From: an uncultured Bacteroidota bacterium
GTDB lineage: Bacteria; Bacteroidota; Ignavibacteria; UBA10030; UBA6906
DNA: 64,000 bases
NCBI GenBank assembly: GCA_963700635.1
Contig: CAVOYH010000004.1
Coordinates: 448,001-512,000 of the forward strand
Direction: 5' to 3'
Shown here: positions 1-8,719 of the stretch, piece after piece
Numbering within the stretch: position 1 is the stretch's first letter
How the letters are laid out: every line of letters begins with the position of its first letter
Position numbers and translations under genes: made by a program
The notes under the pieces: model-generated
Databases searched by the model: none
Told to the model about the DNA's origin: nothing
Seen by the model: only the letters and a program-made list of their open reading frames with translations

Positions 1-1634
1 CGTTCGGCCGTCTGCTGGAGGTAATGCAGGAAAGAATAAGCGCGTTCCAGGCCGGAAGTATCCAGACCTACGTCGATGATCTCGAACAGACCACCCGCAA
101 CGGCGGAACCGTGTGGACACGCACCTGGACACGCTTCCTGATGAACGAGATCACGGAGAGGCTGGAGATTTGCGGAGTGTCCCGTGATCGGACCCTCCAA
201 CGCCAGGACGATGCCATTAAGCGGGAGGGTGATGCACGACTGGATCTGATTCACCGCTGTGCCCATCTGGGCTTCATCGATATCGACTCCACCACGCTGG
301 ACGTGTTCTGGTCTGACGAGACGTTCCGTCTGCTGGGATATCCTCCCCAGGCATTCAAACCGACGCACCGTAATTTTTTTGAACGCGTTCATCCTGACGA
401 TGTGCAGATGGTGCAGGAAGGGATCTCCGCGCTCCTTATGGAAAACGCGATCTCTGACTCCGAATATCGAATCGTCCGGCCCGATGGAGAGATACGGTGG
501 ATGTACGGGAGAAGCGACCTGGTGAAAGACGATAGCGGGTCACCATTACGATATATCACCATACTGTTTGATATCACTGCGCGGAAGCGGGTGGAGGAGG
601 CGTTAAGTGTGAATGAACTCCGCTTCCGTGGTATGACGGAACAACTCGCCGATATGCTCTTTGTGACAGATGGGGCAGGAATTATCACTTACGTCTCGCC
701 GGCGTGCGAGCGTCTGTTCGGAAAAACCCCCGACCAGGTGATCGGATCGGCTTTTATAGAGTTCCTGCCCGAAGACGAGAGGATACCCGTCTCCAACCTG
801 TTCCGGTCAACGGCAGACCGCGACAATCCGGCACACCAGATGGATCTCGTGTTCCGGCATGCGGATGGAACGCTTTTCACGGGGGAACTAAGCGCGTCGG
901 TACTTGTGAAAGGTGGTTCGGTCAATGGCATGATCGGTCTGGTCCGTGATGTTACCGAACGGAAACGCCATGACCAGCAGCTTAAGGCGTCACTCCGGGA
1001 AAAAGAAGTCCTGTTGAAAGAGATCCATCACCGCGTGAAGAACAATTTGCAGATTATCTCCAGCTTGATCAGCCTGCAGGCGAGCAGGGTCAAAGATGAG
1101 GAATCGAGGATGCTTTTCGACGAAAGCCGTTCGCGCATCCGCGCGCTGGCCCTTGTACACGAGCGCCTGTATTGGTCGGAAAGTCTGGCAAGCATCGACT
1201 TCAAGGAATACCTGAAAGGCGTCATTCAAGACCTTGTCCACTCCTCCGGGAATGAACATATTACCATCAACCTTGACGCGGAAATGGTGTCACTCGACAT
1301 CGATCAGGCGATTCCCTGCGGTCTCATCGTGCACGAACTCTGCACCAATGCTCTCAAGCATGCGTTTCGGGACAGACCCGGGGGCACGATATCCGTGTCA
1401 CTCCGTCAATACGCCGGTGGCACCGTTCTCCTTTCTGTGCAGGATGACGGGATCGGCCTTCCTACCGGACTTGATGTGTTTCGGGAGAGTTCGATGGGAA
1501 TGACCCTGGTGACCTCGCTGGTCGATCAGATCGGCGGGTCGCTTTCGGTAGACTGCACCGGCGGCACCGCTTTTACCGTCACCTTCCATCCGCAGGCACG
1601 TACGGAACCGGTCTCGAGTGCGACCCCGGTTTGA
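1..1634 (+). CDS. Multi-PAS sensor histidine kinase (HisKA_2 type), 5' end probably outside the window
   Basis: PAS/PAC motifs (VHPDD...EYRIVRPDGEIRW; YVSPACERLFG), H-box EIHHRVKNNLQ, HATPase motifs ELCTNALKHAF and DDGIGLP. The frame is open from the window edge to the ATG at 24. Confidence 0.9.
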   Translation, partial: FGRLLEVMQERISAFQAGSIQTYVDDLEQTTRNGGTVWTRTWTRFLMNEITERLEICGVSRDRTLQRQDDAIKREGDARLDLIHRCAHLGFIDIDSTTLDVFWSDETFRLLGYPPQAFKPTHRNFFERVHPDDVQMVQEGISALLMENAISDSEYRIVRPDGEIRWMYGRSDLVKDDSGSPLRYITILFDITARKRVEEALSVNELRFRGMTEQLADMLFVTDGAGIITYVSPACERLFGKTPDQVIGSAFIEFLPEDERIPVSNLFRSTADRDNPAHQMDLVFRHADGTLFTGELSASVLVKGGSVNGMIGLVRDVTERKRHDQQLKASLREKEVLLKEIHHRVKNNLQIISSLISLQASRVKDEESRMLFDESRSRIRALALVHERLYWSESLASIDFKEYLKGVIQDLVHSSGNEHITINLDAEMVSLDIDQAIPCGLIVHELCTNALKHAFRDRPGGTISVSLRQYAGGTVLLSVQDDGIGLPTGLDVFRESSMGMTLVTSLVDQIGGSLSVDCTGGTAFTVTFHPQARTEPVSSATPV

Positions 1635-1691: not shown

Positions 1692-3374
1692 ATGTCTCTG
1701 ACCGAAAAGACCGATTTTATACGCGATATCATCGCAGAAGATCTCCATTCCAACAAATATCAGGGGCGCGTCCATACGCGTTTTCCCCCGGAACCGAATG
1801 GATACCTTCATATCGGGCATGCGAAATCGATAAATCTAAACTACGGCATTGCCAGGGAGAATCCGGGCGGAATCTGCAACCTGCGCTTCGACGACACAAA
1901 TCCTGAAAAGGAAGAGCAGGAGTACGTGGATTCTATCATTGCCGATGTCCGCTGGATTGCCGGGCGTATTGACCCGAAGGTTCTCTATGCCTCGGACTAT
2001 TTCGAGCAGATGTATGCGTGGGCGATTGATCTCGTACAAAAAGGGAAGGCCTATGTGTGTGACCTGAACGCCGAAGAGATTCGCGAATCCCGCGGGACGC
2101 TGACGGAGCCCGGCACAGATAGTCCATACAGAACCCGCAGTGTCGAAGAAAATCTTGATCTGCTTTCACGTATGCGCAAAGGCGAATTCCCTGATGGCGC
2201 ACGAACCCTCCGGGCGAAGATCGACATGGCCTCACCGAATATCAATCTTCGCGACCCGATCATGTACCGGATCGTTCACGAGCACCATCACCGTCAGGGG
2301 AGCACGTGGTGCATCTATCCGACGTACGATTGGGCGCATGGACTTGAGGATTCCATCGAAGGTATAACTCACTCCATCTGTACTCTGGAATTCGAGAACC
2401 ACCGGCCTTTGTACGACTGGTTTCTGGACGCACTGGAGATCTACCATCCGCAGCAAATAGAATTTGCAAGGCTCAATCTCAGTTACACCGTGCTCAGTAA
2501 ACGCCGGCTCCTGGAGCTTGTCCAGGGGCACCACGTAACCGGTTGGGATGATCCGCGTATGCCGACCATCGCCGGGTATCGCCGCCGCGGATATACCGCC
2601 GAGGCCATCCGAACATTCTGCGAGAAGATTGGTGTATCAAAAAAGGACAGTATCATCGATGTGGCGCTGCTGGAGTGGAGTATCCGGGAAGATCTGAACA
2701 AGCATGCACAGCGGGTGATGGCCGTTCTTCATCCCCTCAAGGTTGTCATTACAAACTACCCGGAGGGAACCAGCGAAGAACTTCCGGCACTGAACAACCC
2801 GGAAGATGAGAGTGCCGGGACACGGCTCATACCGTTCTCCCGGGAAATGTACATTGACCATGACGACTTCCGCGAGGTTCCTCCCCCAAAATATCACCGA
2901 CTCTCTCCCGGTAAGGAGGTGCGACTGCGCGCCGCGTATATCATCAAGTGTGAAAACGTGGTAAAGGATGCGGCCGGAAAGATTGTTGAGCTGCACTGCA
3001 CGTACGATCCCGAGACGAAGAGCGGAGGTCCGGCGGCCAACCGGAAAGTGAAGGGCACAATACACTGGGTCTCCGCCCCGCACGCAGTCGATGGGGAGGT
3101 ACGCCTGTACGACCGTCTTTTTCTCAAGGAAGACCCCAATGAAGACGGGAGTTTTCTTTCAAACCTCAACCCTGATTCGCTGCAGATTCTGTCCGGATGC
3201 AAGCTGGAGCCCATGCTCGGATCAGCGGCGCCAGGAGAGAGATTTCAATTCGAACGTGTGGGATATTTCTGCGTGGATTCCGCACGGACCGATTCGGGGG
3301 CGCCCGTATTCAACCGCACAGTGACGCTCCGGGATACGTGGGCAAAGATTGCACAAAGGGGAGCGGGGGTCTAA
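1692..3374 (+). CDS. glnS: Glutamine--tRNA ligase
   Basis: [17 protein letters not shown] (HIGH), [79 protein letters not shown]. Confidence 0.97.
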
Positions 3375-4757
3375 CGCCGGTACCGCGAAATAAACTCCTC
3401 GACTTCCGGGATCCCTCCCTGAAAAATGAGATATCCGTTGCTCGGCTCACGATCGGTAATCTCCCCTGCAACAGGTGTCATCATGATCTCCCTCACCTTC
3501 TCGACAGGTCGTCTGCTTTGGCCGAGTGCCCATCCCAGTTTCATGTACGCGACCTCCGGGAGCATGTTGGCTCCCGGGATAACGCCCAGTTCCATCATGT
3601 CGCGCCCCGTGTCATAGACATACATCTGAACATACCCCCACAACGTCTGAACAGTCATGTACACGGCAATCCCCTTCTGATGGGCCTCTTCGTAAGGAGG
3701 GATAGAGGGGTTTGTTAACATGGCCGAGCCCCGTGCCCGCGATGACGATCCCCCGGTACCCGTTGTCAATCAACGACTCGATAATGTCCGGCTTCATATT
3801 CGGGTAGTAGTACACGATTGAGACTTTTTCCTCGAACGCCGTATTGACGACAACCCGGTGGTCATCCCGCCGCCTCCGGTAGTCCTGGCGAAGCGGGGTG
3901 ATACGGTCCCGGCTGACCATGGCGAGCGGAATATCGCCGATCGTACGAAACGTGGAACGGTAGCTGGAATGCATTTTGCGTACCCGGGTCCCGCGGTGCA
4001 GAAGACCGTACTCATCGGAGGTCGGACCAAACATGCACACCGTAATCTCCGCGATGTCACTTTCCGCGGCAGTTTTCACGCTGTGCATGAGATTCAATGC
4101 CGCATCCGAGGAAGGGCGATCACTCGAGCGTTGTGAGCCGACCATGACGACAGGGACCGGGGAATCCTGGATCATGAAGGAGAGGATGGCCGCCGTATGA
4201 TGCATGGTGTCCGTCCCGTGCCCGATAACAATACCCTGAACCCCTTTTTCGATCTCACGTCCGATGGCCTGTGCTGTACCGATCCATTGTTCAGGCCCCA
4301 TATTCTCACTGAAGACGCCATACAGTTTTTCTGTTTCCAGATTGCAGATGTCGGCGAGTTCCGGCACGGAACCATATAATTCACCGGGCGAAAAGGCGGG
4401 GATAACCGCACCGGTGCGGTAATCCAACCGGCTTGCTATGGTGCCGCCCGTCCCCAGGAGTTTTACGCGCGGTTTCTGCGGGTCGTACGGAAATTCCTTT
4501 TCGGGGATCTTATAGTGGGCCTCCTTGCGTCCGTGGACGCTGATCTGTTGAACACCGGACGCTGCGATGCCGACATTGTATCCGCTTCGGAGTTTCAAGA
4601 CGATGTGGTGGGGATCAGCAGTTTCTGATCTCGGGAGCACAATGCCGACAAATACACCGTTCGCCGTATGGATCTCCACATCGCTCCAGACCTGCGCGCC
4701 ATATGCCTTCAATGTCGAAAGCGCTTCCTCGCGATACCCTCTGAAATCGCCGTTCAT
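3371..4757 (-). CDS. gatD: Glu-tRNA(Gln) amidotransferase subunit D (archaeal-type GatD), split by a single-base frameshift near 3685
   Basis: GatD N-domain ([13 protein letters not shown]), [54 protein letters not shown]. The C-terminus ([10 protein letters not shown]...VYDTGR...[16 protein letters not shown]) lies in ORF 3371..3769. The ATG at 4757 overlaps the gatE stop (ATGA). Confidence 0.9.
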
Positions 4758-6670
4758 GTCCGGTTCTCCATAAGGAGTGCGACAATCAGTTCTGCGACCT
4801 GCGCGCCCTCGACCCTGCCTCGTAGCTTCTGCATCACGCATCCCATCAGGACTGTCGCCGTGTGCTCTGGGTGACGGATGTGTATGCCTGTTATGTGTTC
4901 TTTGCACGACGTGATGACCGAATCCAGCTCGTCACCCGTACATCTGCCCGGGAGTTGTTCCCTGGAAAATGCCCTGCCTTCGGCGATGCCACGGAGGGCG
5001 GGGAGTACACCTTCGCGGGTTAGCACGCCGTCTCTCAACGCACAGAGAAGCTCCTGCATCTGCTCGCGTGTAAATGTTTGGGGACGGCCCAGTGACCGTG
5101 TGACACGTTTGGGAAGCTGGATAAGAATGACGGCGACAGCCGTAGGCCGGAGTCGCCAAGCCGTGACGGCTTCGGCAAAGAGATCTGCGTAGTGTGAAAT
5201 GCTCAATGGACCCACACAATCTTCTGGAATGTGCAGCGAACGGTACCACTGTTCGCGTTCCCAGACCGGTTGGGGGACGTTTGCACGAATACGTGCGAGC
5301 CGTTCGGCCGAGATGCGCAGTGGCGGGAGATCCGTATCAGGGTACATCCGGTTAGGTCCGGGCAGGATACGTTCAAATCCGTTGGTACCATCCCGGAGCG
5401 CCTGCCTGGTTTCGGATGGGACGCCGTGGGTCGCCTCTTGCGCCCGGATGATGATCTCGGCCGCTCCGGCAGGTCCATCCTGTTTGCTGCCCCAGACGAG
5501 GACCAGTGCATCGTCTTCTGCCGCATTGAGTGTGCGTCGCACACTTTGCCATTCGGATGAGGCGAGTGTTTCGCTCGGACTGTCGGAGTGGATAATGTTG
5601 GGCAGTGTTGTAAGGCAGGCAACCACCCGAACACGATCGGAAATTTCCCTGGAGAAATATGTGTCAGTTTGTGTCTGCCACCGCAGGAGATCCCTGAAAC
5701 CAAAAAGCGCGACAGCGTAGACGAACTTGCCCCCCGCGATTGCGTCCCGTATGGGCTGGTAGAGGGTCCGCCGCAGAAGTTTGGTGACGTCTTCCGTGTG
5801 TGAGCGAAATGTTTCCGAGGTAATACCACGGCGGTGCAACTCGTCGCGAAGCCGGAGGAGCTGGACCTGACGCATGGCTTCATGATAGGTCAGAAGGGGG
5901 ATATCCGGGATACGCGGGACACCTTTGATTTCGATCCGCGTTCCGCCTGTCACGCTGACGTTTACGTCCTGTCGCGCGGCCCCGGCACCCGTGCGGACCT
6001 TTCCCGTACTCCGGACCAGCTGCCGGAGGATCTGCGCCACCTCGGCAACTTCAGCCGGCGTGTGCATGTCGGGGGCAGTGACGGTTTCAATCAGCGGCAT
6101 CCCGAGCCGGTCGGTAAGATACGTCCGCCGGTGGCCGACATCGCTGACCTCACGGCAGGCGTCCTCTTCGAGTCCAAGCTGGAGAATGCGGATATGCCGG
6201 TCCTTATAGGGTGTTGAGCCTTCCACCCCCACGATGGTGGTGCGTTGAAACCCGGTGGGGATACTGCCGTCGAGATATTGTTTCCGGGCAATGTGAATCT
6301 CATCAACCATCGTGCATCCGTACAGCATTGCTACTTCGAGGGCGATGTCCAGAGCCTCCGGGTTGAGCTCAAAAGGGGGGGTGTCGTCCATTTCATACGT
6401 GCACACCGTGTCGCGATGAATAAGATAAATGATCTCCTTCTTCGTCTTAAATTCCATCAGGGCCGTGCCGTCATATTCCCCCAATTCCGACAGCGTGGGC
6501 CGCATATGCCGCAAAATCTCCGCGTTACATTCATCGCTGTAGCGTCCGGATGGGCACCGGCAGAACAGCTTCTTTGATGTCAGGAGTTGCTGATGGATTT
6601 CCAGACCGGATTTGAAACCGATGGCCGCATAGTCTGCTTCGGTCATCTCGTGGAACGGCTTGAGAGTCAT
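4754..6670 (-). CDS. gatE: Glu-tRNA(Gln) amidotransferase subunit E (archaeal-type GatE)
   Basis: GLEIHQQL..KKLFCRCP, RPTLSELGEYD, EMDDTPP, RKQYLDGSIPTGFQRT, LEEDA, DRLGMPLIETVTAPD, RSTGKV...RQDVNVSV.GG.RIEIKGV, an insertion domain (IIHSD) and GVPSETR...LPGPNRMYPDTDLPP. At 638 aa it is longer than GatB. Confidence 0.93.
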   Translation of the reverse strand: MTLKPFHEMTEADYAAIGFKSGLEIHQQLLTSKKLFCRCPSGRYSDECNAEILRHMRPTLSELGEYDGTALMEFKTKKEIIYLIHRDTVCTYEMDDTPPFELNPEALDIALEVAMLYGCTMVDEIHIARKQYLDGSIPTGFQRTTIVGVEGSTPYKDRHIRILQLGLEEDACREVSDVGHRRTYLTDRLGMPLIETVTAPDMHTPAEVAEVAQILRQLVRSTGKVRTGAGAARQDVNVSVTGGTRIEIKGVPRIPDIPLLTYHEAMRQVQLLRLRDELHRRGITSETFRSHTEDVTKLLRRTLYQPIRDAIAGGKFVYAVALFGFRDLLRWQTQTDTYFSREISDRVRVVACLTTLPNIIHSDSPSETLASSEWQSVRRTLNAAEDDALVLVWGSKQDGPAGAAEIIIRAQEATHGVPSETRQALRDGTNGFERILPGPNRMYPDTDLPPLRISAERLARIRANVPQPVWEREQWYRSLHIPEDCVGPLSISHYADLFAEAVTAWRLRPTAVAVILIQLPKRVTRSLGRPQTFTREQMQELLCALRDGVLTREGVLPALRGIAEGRAFSREQLPGRCTGDELDSVITSCKEHITGIHIRHPEHTATVLMGCVMQKLRGRVEGAQVAELIVALLMENRT

Positions 6671-6819: not shown

Positions 6820-8719
6820 ATGACACCCAACGCGCTCACTGCACTTCTTGAGAATATCCGGCACGCCAGAATCGGGATACTCGGCGATTTTTTTCTGGAC
6901 GTGTACCTTCTCCTTGATCCGGCAGCATCCGAAGTATCCGTTGAGACCGGCCTTGCCACGCGGGCAGTTCGGAGTCAGCGGTACTTCCTCGGCGGGGCAG
7001 GAAATGTCGCCAGCAACCTGCTGGCCATGGGAGCGGGGCAGCTGTCTGTCTTCGGCGTCATCGGCCGCGACCCCTTCGGCGCAGAAATGCAGAGTATGAT
7101 GTCGGAGCAGGGTGTCAAGACGGACGGTCTCCTTGTCCAGCGGGAGACCTGGGACACCCACGTGTACACAAAGCCACACGAACGGGAGCATGAGCAGCAC
7201 CGGATTGACTTTGGTAACTTTAACCAGTTGCAGGCCTCGACCGGTCGCCAGCTTCTCGAGCTTCTCGAAAACGCTCTGCCTACGCTTGACCTCGTCGTTA
7301 TCAATCAGCAGGCTATCCGTGGACTTCACTCCGCCGAATTTCGCCAGGGATTGACCGAGCTTATACAGCGGCATCCGGAATTCCGGTTTATCGTGGACTC
7401 GCGCCATTACTCCGATGTGTACGCCGGAGCGATGCGCAAGGTGAATGTTCTCGAAGCGTCCCGGTTGTCCCGGGTGCAGGCGGCAAGGGGCGACTCCCCG
7501 GATGGATCCTCCATTGAGACACTTGCGCGGGAGCTGTTTGAGCGCTGGGGAAAACCGCTTTTCCTGACGCGGGGCGAACACGGGTGCAGCGTCTGTGACG
7601 ATTCAGGATATAGAGAGATACCGGGTCTGCTTATACTGTCGCCAGTGGATCCCGTGGGTGCCGGAGACAGCATGCTCGCCGGGATCGCTGCAGCCCTGGC
7701 GACGGGGGCAGAACCGTACACAGCAGCCGAACTCGGCGACACTCGTGGCAGGCGTGACGGTCCAGAAGTTGATGCAGACGGGCACCGCATCGCCCGAGGA
7801 AATCCTCAAGTTAGGCACCGATCCTGATTTCCGTTACAAACCCGATCTGGCCCGGCAGCCTCGCAAGGCAACGTACCGGCCCGGTACCAACATCGAGATT
7901 GTCTCGATTCTTCCGGAACGCCGTCGGTTTACGCATGTCATCTTCGATCACGATGGGACACTGTCGACGTTGCGGCAGGGGTGGGAAGATATCATGGAAC
8001 CCATGATGACCCGGGCTATTCTTGGAGACAAGGCACACGACGTGGATGAGACACTCTACAACGAAGTTCGAAGTGCCGTCAGAGATTTTATTGATAAAAC
8101 AACGGGTATCCAGACTCTGGTCCAGATGCGGGGGCTCATCAATCTTGTGCGGCGCTTCAGGTGTGTTCCGGAAGGTTCCATTCTGGACGAGGCAGGGTAC
8201 AAGAGCATCTACAACGAGGAGCTTCTCGGCATGGTCAATGGCCGGATTACGCAGCTAGCGAAGGGAGAGCTGGATGTCGAGGATTTCACTATCAAGAACG
8301 CCGGAGCGTTGCTTCGCGAGCTTTCTTTGCGGGATGTTGAACTGTATCTCGCCAGCGGCACGGACCACGATGATGTTGTACGTGAGACAGAGATGCTGGG
8401 ATATCGAAACCTGTTCGGCGGCAGGATCTATGGTGCAGTCGGGGATGTGACGAAAGAAGCAAAACGTATGGTGCTTGAACGGATCATGAACGATATCGGG
8501 GATGCAGCGCACGAACGCATTCTGACATTCGGGGACGGTCCGGTCGAGGTTCGTGAGACCCACAAACGCGGCGGGTATGCGGTTGGTGTGGCGAGTAATG
8601 AGATCCGGCGTTACGGACAGGATCTACAGAAGCGGCGAAGACTCATCGAGGCTGGTGCCGATCTGATCATTCCGGATTTCTGTCAATTGGATTCGCTCGT
8701 CCAACTTCTGTTCCCGTGA
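6820..8719 (+). CDS. PfkB/HldE(RfaE)-like sugar kinase fused to a HAD hydrolase, split by a frameshift near 7736
   Basis: GDFFLDVY, LGGAGNVASNL, LTRGEHG, VDPVGAGDS (PfkB). Removing one base gives AELATLVAGVTVQK, which continues into the HAD domain (IFDHDGTLSTL, LASGT, FGDGPVE, GADLIIPDF). Confidence 0.8.

Follow-up and report, generated by a model that had tools for sequence, protein, structure and literature searches.

Why would a bacterium that possesses a glutaminyl-tRNA synthetase (GlnRS) also carry, right beside it, the two-subunit amidotransferase GatDE known from archaea? This question is raised by the convergent genes glnS, gatD and gatE in a stretch of 64,000 nucleotides (the window, i.e., the whole stretch of DNA that was analysed), which represents C4:448001-512000 of the 4.2-Mb, 6-contig assembly of an uncultured Bacteroidota bacterium of the class Ignavibacteria, with an estimated completeness of ~97% and an estimated contamination of 6.7%. 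The answer that best accommodates the evidence presented here is that the two gat genes probably form a resident, vertically kept operon of a bacterial type, the product of which would be a working Glu-tRNA(Gln) amidotransferase alongside GlnRS and a second amidotransferase, GatCAB.

Identity of the glnS, gatD and gatE genes

The glnS gene (1692..3374, plus strand) is intact and encodes a glutamine--tRNA ligase of 560 amino acids (aa), which scores 715.8 bits on the NCBIfam model TIGR00440 (cut-off 425.8) and contains the Pfam domain tRNA-synt_1c together with both anticodon-binding domains. On the minus strand, gatE (4754..6670), which is also intact, encodes a protein of 638 aa, the tRNA-dependent kinase/transamidase subunit of GatDE, with 538.2 bits on NF003107 (cut-off 456) and 450.3 bits on TIGR00134 (cut-off 319.55), whereas the best score of this protein on the GatB models was 140.9 bits, under the cut-off of 338, and TIGR00133 (GatB) reached 129.7 bits on residues 97-284, below its own cut-off. 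The Pfam domain GatB_N is matched by residues 21-457 of GatE for 275 profile positions, which reflects an extra inserted domain, and the GatB_Yqey tail (residues 496-631) is weak, at 22.3 bits vs a cut-off of 27.

The gatD gene (3371..4757, minus strand), which encodes the glutaminase/asparaginase-type subunit, occupies two frames in the assembly, with its N part at 4757-3711 and its C part at ~3685-3371. Against the TIGR02153 cut-off of 324, the N part reaches 401.6 bits over profile positions 1-315, and the C part 93.8 bits over positions 319-403. A broad model of the type I asparaginase subfamily also passes its cut-off (286.1 bits vs 260.5), with a score lower than that of TIGR02153, while the other asparaginase models and the GatB models gave lower scores, all under their own cut-offs. 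The Pfam domains found are GatD_N (PF18195, residues 23-74), Asparaginase and Asparaginase_C.

The archaeal structures point in the same direction, as residues 12-634 of GatE align, over the full length, to residues 8-628 of 1zq1_C (E 5e-101), and match 2d6f_C with E 2e-93, while the N part of GatD matches 2d6f_A with E 8e-95. NCBIfam, Pfam and these structures agree, and the three genes are therefore identified, by sequence comparison, as those of GlnRS and a genuine GatDE pair, which is neither GatB nor an ordinary asparaginase, as proposed in an earlier note on this DNA that had been drawn up from the letters alone.

Every catalytic motif quoted in that note is readable in the translations, i.e., EIHQQ, LEEDA, PLIE, RQDVNVS, RKQYLDGSIPTG and VRTGAGAARQD in GatE, and TGGT, HGTDT and RKMH in GatD, aligned to 2d6f_A. 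The last three motifs presumably supply, respectively, the Thr, the Thr-Asp and the Lys of the active site, an assignment made by motif. The Mg site of GatE was likewise mapped by motif to the numbering of the Methanothermobacter thermautotrophicus enzyme, with EIHQQ, LEEDA and PLIE aligned to the enzyme of Pyrococcus abyssi, and its columns are invariant both in an archaeal alignment (A1; H17, E161/E162 and E188) and in a bacterial-type alignment (A2; H23, E166/E167 and E193). In the part of PMC2330236 that was available, the Mg ligands of GatE from M. thermautotrophicus are given as His15, Glu157 and Glu184, and GatD is described as using a Thr nucleophile together with a triad of Thr, Lys and Asp.

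The genes are tightly packed. The start codon of gatD (ATG, 4757-4755) overlaps the stop codon of gatE (TGA, 4756-4754) as ATGA (4757-4754) in the minus-strand read, which confirms the overlap described previously, and the stop codon of gatD (TAG, 3373-3371, minus strand) has two bases in common with that of glnS (TAA, 3372-3374, plus strand), so that the convergent overlap reported at 3371-3374 is also confirmed.

The reading frame of gatD

The two frames of gatD result from one extra base at 3682-3687, in the minus-strand stretch ...AGAGGCCC..., with zero residues lost: given that the TIGR02153 positions 1-315 and 319-403 fall into different frames, the gene is one base out of step and nothing is missing. 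The window alone has this base in an alignment with 11 relatives, the N and C parts lie in a single frame in 72/72 related loci holding both, and six relatives have an uninterrupted gatD open reading frame (ORF) of 460 aa. A 151-base environmental contig (record 12, run X4) that spans 3564-3715 differs from the window in two other letters and omits one base at 3687, which indicates, with a depth of 2 and a single contig, that an almost identical strain has an intact gatD frame. The public DNA sequencing runs hold only small shares of the stretch, in patchy contigs, and no RNA run was listed among them.

One explanation that has to be weighed here is that the frameshift is real, i.e., that a dispensable GatDE is being lost and the pair has only just turned into a pseudogene in this strain. 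This is a possible, if somewhat doubtful, course of events. The frame is broken in the only available assembly, the inserted base is not a simple homopolymer extension, and Gln-tRNA synthesis is redundant in this genome. In addition, of the 93 genes with orthologues in 400 kb of a same-genus genome, only one contains a frameshift-like junction, which indicates that assembly indels are uncommon here and leaves room for a real mutation. The sole gene concerned (C4:326321-327947) presents two frame changes within ~50 bases, a compensated shift. The patchy occurrence of gatE in relatives, and its presence in pieces in genomes G008 and G018, may also be counted on this side, as gatE lies in two frames in both (loci L107 and L108, respectively), and so does gatD in L107. 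However, G008 is an estimated 61% complete despite having 40 contigs, and may be an indel-rich assembly, so that the several frame breaks at its locus are weak evidence of decay.

Other features of the window speak against loss, as no further lesions are present, gatE is intact, and the conservation of the part of gatD that follows the break is on a par with that among the intact relatives. This part is 78-88% identical to those relatives, although ~8 of its 113 residues are out of frame, while the relatives are 84-95% identical to each other, and, at the level of sequence, there is no sign of decay beyond the break. The near-identical environmental contig has the intact frame, and local consensus errors are suggested by a second isolated insertion, which lies at a distance of 4 kb in an unrelated conserved gene. 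The latter gene (6820..8719, plus strand), a neighbour outside the GatDE system, encodes a PfkB-family sugar kinase. In three genomes of the same genus it forms one ORF of 633-667 aa, whereas here it is split by one inserted base near 7737, where the window has GGCGAC vs GGGAC in loci L097, L098 and L099. On the coding strand, each of the two insertions interrupts three consecutive G.

Taken together, these data make it rather likely that the break in gatD is due either to an error in the consensus or to a change that is very recent and private to the strain, as opposed to long-term decay. The earlier note had foreseen that the frameshift might be real and the pair decaying. The first part stands insofar as the frameshift is real in the assembly, while the second is the less likely reading, given the 72 intact relatives and the conserved sequence that follows the break.

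Residence in the genus and spread among bacteria

Relatives of GatE were sought in one genome per species, and at least 328 were confirmed, of which the best 80 were used for the comparison of loci. All of these 80 are bacterial, with 57-79% identity, and their titles point mainly to Ignavibacteriota, Bacteroidota, Kapabacteria, Chlorobiota and Aminicenantes. The order gatE-gatD is kept, with 75-91% identity to the window in the N part of GatD. Across phyla, GatD is far more conserved than GatE, with ~83-85% identity between the GatD of Aminicenantes or Ignavibacteria and that of the window. In four loci (L030, L052, L069 and L079), the distance between the two genes is not a few bases but ~0.4 to 3.4 kb.

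A wider search with GatE, against 1.84 billion cluster representatives, returned 665 matches at E <= 1e-30, which fall into two bands of identity, 40-58% and 32-38%. The alignment of the lower band (A1) led to loci that are archaeal by title in 79/80 cases, whereas that of the basal part of the upper band (A2) led to loci that are bacterial by title in 77/80, the other three being Thermoplasmatota, with at least 597 of the 598 candidate stretches in the A2 search confirmed. Among the bacterial loci are Planctomycetota, Myxococcota, Zixibacteria, Coatesbacteria, WOR-3, Fermentibacteria, Krumholzibacteria, Cloacimonadota, Calditrichota and Acidobacteriota. The bacterial-type alignment (A2) has a nearly invariant RKQYLDGSIPTGFQRT, while the archaeal consensus in A1 at the same place is RKxVIDGSNTSGFQRT. 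The view that the deviant motifs of the window represent a diverged bacterial clade is thus borne out. The rarity that the earlier note had implied is not, given the at least 328 and at least 597 relatives spread over many bacterial phyla, and the fact that NCBIfam names the proteins.

The phylogeny that had been called for was run against archaea in two ways. The first GatE tree (FastTree, 269 rows) included 157/160 loci with a full-length GatE, the window and 110 representatives of 590-720 aa, and was rooted on the GatB of the window genome itself. All archaeal-labelled loci fall into one of its two GatE clades (156 rows), and the window and all 78 close loci into the other (112 rows; support 99, branch 0.35). 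The second tree (IQ-TREE in quick mode, LG+G4) was scored by the SH-like approximate likelihood ratio test (SH-aLRT) and was restricted to a chosen subset of 94 rows, which comprised, in addition to the window, 12/78 close loci, 48/72 A2 loci (those labelled Ignavibacteriota, Bacteroidota or Chlorobiota being left out), 27/79 archaeal loci (every third) and six GatB proteins from archaea and bacteria. The 27 archaeal rows form one clade (SH-aLRT 98), and the other clade (SH-aLRT 99, branch 0.41) contains 61 rows, of which 51 are bacterial, eight unlabelled and two Thermoplasmatota. The GatE of the window lies outside the archaeal clade and deep inside the bacterial-type clade, where its nearest relatives are Ignavibacteriota and Bacteroidota. 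It may tentatively be suggested that the bacterial-type GatE is sister to the sampled archaeal clade, with the GatB root on a long branch and a partial sampling of the archaea.

The bins labelled Thermoplasmatota (G046-G048; loci L202, L205, L271/L285 and L283) present a mixed picture near the base of this clade, where all three carry a bacterial-type GatE. One bin has two GatE, one archaeal and one of the bacterial type in a 125-row tree, and two others have the bacterial type only, which could result from mis-binning or gene transfer, or could hint at how the clade originated. By its sequence, the pair in the window is itself a typical member of a very large bacterial GatDE clade that is already annotated in public genomes.

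These results also bear on a further explanation, according to which the genes are a recent import from archaea, or an artefact of a chimeric assembly or of binning. The estimated contamination (6.7%) and the available parts of the reviews, which call GatDE archaea-only, would fit this scenario, although it is most improbable in light of the remaining evidence. The contig (C4) is 1.02 Mb long and holds gatB, a gatA and a transfer-messenger RNA (tmRNA) gene, the last of which marks the genome as bacterial, and the G+C content across the window is even, at 0.53-0.58. The same gene order is found in four other genomes of the genus, and the protein of the window is set apart from the 27 archaeal rows by the branches with SH-aLRT 98 and 99. 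Contig size, tmRNA, G+C, synteny and trees led to the rejection of a chimera or recent import, and the chimeric assembly that the earlier note had considered is contradicted by the contig, the synteny and the trees.

Within the genus, gatE scores over the cut-off in 6/6 genomes, that of the window included, and the order kinase - gatE - gatD - glnS is common to the loci of four other genomes (L097-L100). Upstream of glnS, the window has a PAS-domain sensor histidine kinase (24..1634, plus strand; NCBIfam PAS S-box and histidine-kinase matches), a neighbour outside the GatDE system that is syntenic in the same-genus locus L100. The synteny of glnS with gatDE, which had been suggested as a check, is kept within the genus, while the tight adjacency is absent beyond it: the tight convergent glnS-gatD pair was found only in the genus of the window (L097-L100, L011 and L015). 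A linkage to glnS as a general rule was thus rejected, given that glnS lies beside gatD in only 2/80 loci (L011 and L015) in addition to the genus loci; in G022, it is 7.6 kb from gatD. A linkage of tRNA-Gln to the gatED genes was also rejected, as none of the 60 loci scanned (of the best 80) has a tRNA-Gln nearby, while two have a tRNA-Leu. No gene for a glutamyl-tRNA synthetase (GluRS), an asparaginyl-tRNA synthetase (AsnRS) or GatA was found near gatED in the 80 loci, and the 64-kb window contains no tRNA genes.

Whether GatDE and GlnRS tend to occur together was addressed with a class sample of 201 genomes, each at least 90% complete, which are kin, so that the counts overstate independence. 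In this sample, gatE was found in 45 genomes, glnS in 104 and gatB in 175. The glnS gene is present in 43/45 gatE carriers (the exceptions being G060 and G197) vs 61/156 genomes without gatE, while gatB is absent in 18/45 carriers vs 8/156 others, and 17 of those 18 have glnS. Seen from the other side, gatE is carried by 18 of the 26 genomes that lack gatB, a set in which six members were inferred from absence in the printed match list. In family f23, for example, the same 8/13 genomes have gatE and glnS, seven of them without gatB, and the other five have gatB only. The association of glnS with gatE was not replicated in a sample of Phycisphaerae (n=121), where 5/7 gatE carriers have glnS vs 85/121 genomes overall, and it is therefore not general. 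Bacterial GatDE nevertheless commonly sits beside GlnRS. The earlier note had taken GatDE to be an archaeal signature enzyme of organisms without GlnRS, a view that is at odds with the glnS that adjoins gatD here and with the 43 carriers of the class.

A requirement of GatDE for the formation of Asn was also considered and found to be unsupported: asnS is present in 23/25 genomes checked and asnB-family genes in 21/25, including most of those with gatE but without gatB, so that GatDE does not seem to be required for Asn.

A probable third route to glutaminyl-tRNA and its known counterparts

The genome of the window has single genes for GatB, AsnRS (asnS), a bacterial GluRS (gltX) and GlnRS, two for GatA that score over the cut-off, and one gatD/gatE pair, while neither an asnB-family gene over the cut-off nor asnA was found in it. 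The proposal that the direct (GlnRS) and indirect routes to Gln-tRNA are encoded side by side is therefore borne out, with the addition that, as GatCAB and AsnRS are also encoded, GatDE is a third and redundant element, rather than a partner that fills a gap. ARAGORN found four tRNA-Gln genes in the six contigs (two UUG and two CUG), all with U1-A72 and G73, and all with a D-loop shorter than that of the tRNA-Glu genes. No tRNA-Asn was found among the 47 tRNA genes in the same six contigs, despite the presence of asnS, and the gene may sit in an assembly gap. There are two tRNA-Glu(CUC)/tRNA-Gln(CUG) pairs (C4:107078-113464 and C3:1912940-1920966), each 5-6.5 kb from one gatA paralogue. The possibility that the two places are strain duplicates was discarded, given that only the 153-base tRNA pair is alike, at 95%.

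The type of GluRS determines whether Glu-tRNA(Gln) is available, and Arg358 of the Thermus thermophilus enzyme is a residue which we take to be a marker of discriminating enzymes. The Arg is present at this position in the window genome and also in 3/6 GluRS from GatCAB-only genomes, which are necessarily non-discriminating, so that the residue is uninformative in this class. The class holds two GluRS types, with either Arg or Tyr at this position, which occur together in several genomes, and 6/30 genomes searched have two GluRS genes. In many families of the class, gltX adjoins glnS, and in the family of the window it lies ~4-5 kb from asnS (C2:210744-217553 in the window genome).

In the mechanism proposed here, the single bacterial GluRS would provide Glu-tRNA(Gln), formed on the U1-A72 tRNA-Gln, as the substrate of GatDE. 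By homology, GatE would phosphorylate the side chain of the Glu on this tRNA, while GatD would free ammonia from Gln or Asn and pass it to GatE. The product would be Gln-tRNA(Gln), made in parallel to the direct route of GlnRS and to that of GatCAB. The conservation of GatD, the kept operon and the loss of gatB in gatE carriers would fit an amidotransferase that is able to replace GatCAB. GatDE may thereby be a back-up, a proof-reader or an enzyme with a new substrate, the three roles put forward in the earlier note.

Several points weigh against this interpretation of the locus. The gatD gene is broken as assembled, in a genome where the 93 orthologous genes suggest few assembly indels, and the GluRS may be of either type. 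The occurrence of gatE is patchy: across the genus, family and order (41 genomes), it is over the cut-off in 11 and in pieces in two more, while glnS is over the cut-off in 33 and GatB-type matches are found in nearly all. Given that GlnRS and GatCAB are already in the genome, the need for GatDE is not evident. Finally, the available portions of PMC2330236 and PMC9499178 describe the archaeal GatDE as recognising A1-U72 and as using the extra D-loop bases of tRNA-Glu for rejection. As all of the tRNA-Gln genes have U1-A72, the archaeal A1-U72 rule cannot apply here, while the D-loop rule could, and either the recognition differs or the substrate is another.

The last of these options amounts to an alternative in which the bacterial-type GatDE would have another or a wider substrate, perhaps Asp-tRNA(Asn), or both this and Glu-tRNA(Gln), as a full replacement for GatCAB. 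The 18 gatE carriers among the 26 gatB-less genomes of the class would be compatible with this, as would the homology of GatD to asparaginases, the tRNA identity rule that cannot apply, and the lack of asnA and of an asnB-family gene over the cut-off in the window genome, where Asn may be formed on the tRNA. It is an unlikely alternative all the same: asnS and asnB-family genes are present in most of the genomes checked, where a demand for an Asp-specific amidotransferase is not apparent, GatCAB is retained in the window genome for the Asn role, and the archaeal enzyme is Glu-specific, according to the available part of PMC2330236.

In the literature, GatDE is called archaeal only, and is tied to the absence of GlnRS and to an A1-U72 tRNA-Gln, as far as the available parts of PMC2330236 and PMC9499178 go. 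The presence of a conserved GatDE, here as at hundreds of other loci, in bacteria with GlnRS and U1-A72 tRNA-Gln means that neither rule holds for bacteria. No published account of bacterial GatDE was found in a search judged by titles, the starts of abstracts and passages, and no publications linking GatDE with Ignavibacteri* were found. Public family models already name these genes, and it is the literature, rather than the genome, that has the gap. More speculatively, the bacterial-type GatDE might represent an old lineage that is sister to the archaeal enzyme, rather than a recent import, and that adapted to U1-A72; in bacteria with GlnRS, it would provide a second transamidation system able to replace GatCAB. 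If this were true, GatDE would not be an archaeal signature, and living bacteria would lend direct support to the view that the two amidotransferases are older than the divergence of bacteria and archaea. This raises the questions of how GatDE recognises the bacterial tRNA-Gln, why an amidotransferase is kept beside GlnRS, and whether GatDE can replace GatCAB. The window itself adds little beyond a clean example, with three systems in one genome and glnS beside gatD.

Among known systems, the archaeal GatDE (2D6F of M. thermautotrophicus and 1ZQ1 of P. abyssi) also has two subunits, whose domain order agrees over the full length with that of the window pair, as well as the same catalytic motifs and coupled gatE-gatD genes, and the NCBIfam equivalog cut-offs are passed by the window pair. 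It differs in that the host of the window is a bacterium with GlnRS, GatCAB and AsnRS, that the tRNA-Gln of this genome has U1-A72 rather than the archaeal A1-U72, that the clade of the window has signatures of its own (RHMRPTLSE, YDGTALME and RKQYLDGSIPTG), and that the GatE of the window is only 32-38% identical to archaeal representatives. The bacterial-type clade (Ignavibacteriota, Aminicenantes, Planctomycetota, Zixibacteria and others) is much closer, given the identities of GatE (57-79%) and of the N part of GatD (75-91%) and the same operon order, and the window departs from it in the tight convergent glnS, which is limited to its genus, and in the broken frame of gatD, seen in this assembly only.

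GatCAB, the heterotrimeric tRNA-dependent amidotransferase, is related through GatE, a paralogue of GatB, which by homology would perform the same overall reaction. Unlike GatCAB, GatDE has a glutaminase subunit of the asparaginase type (GatD) instead of the amidase GatA, has no GatC, and bears the extra inserted domain in GatE. Deinococcus, Thermus and Bdellovibrio, for which the available part of PMC4206432 reports that GatCAB is kept despite GlnRS and AsnRS, for the formation of Asn on the tRNA, offer a parallel for an amidotransferase that is kept beside both direct synthetases, although theirs is GatCAB, whereas the window genome keeps GatDE on top of GatCAB.

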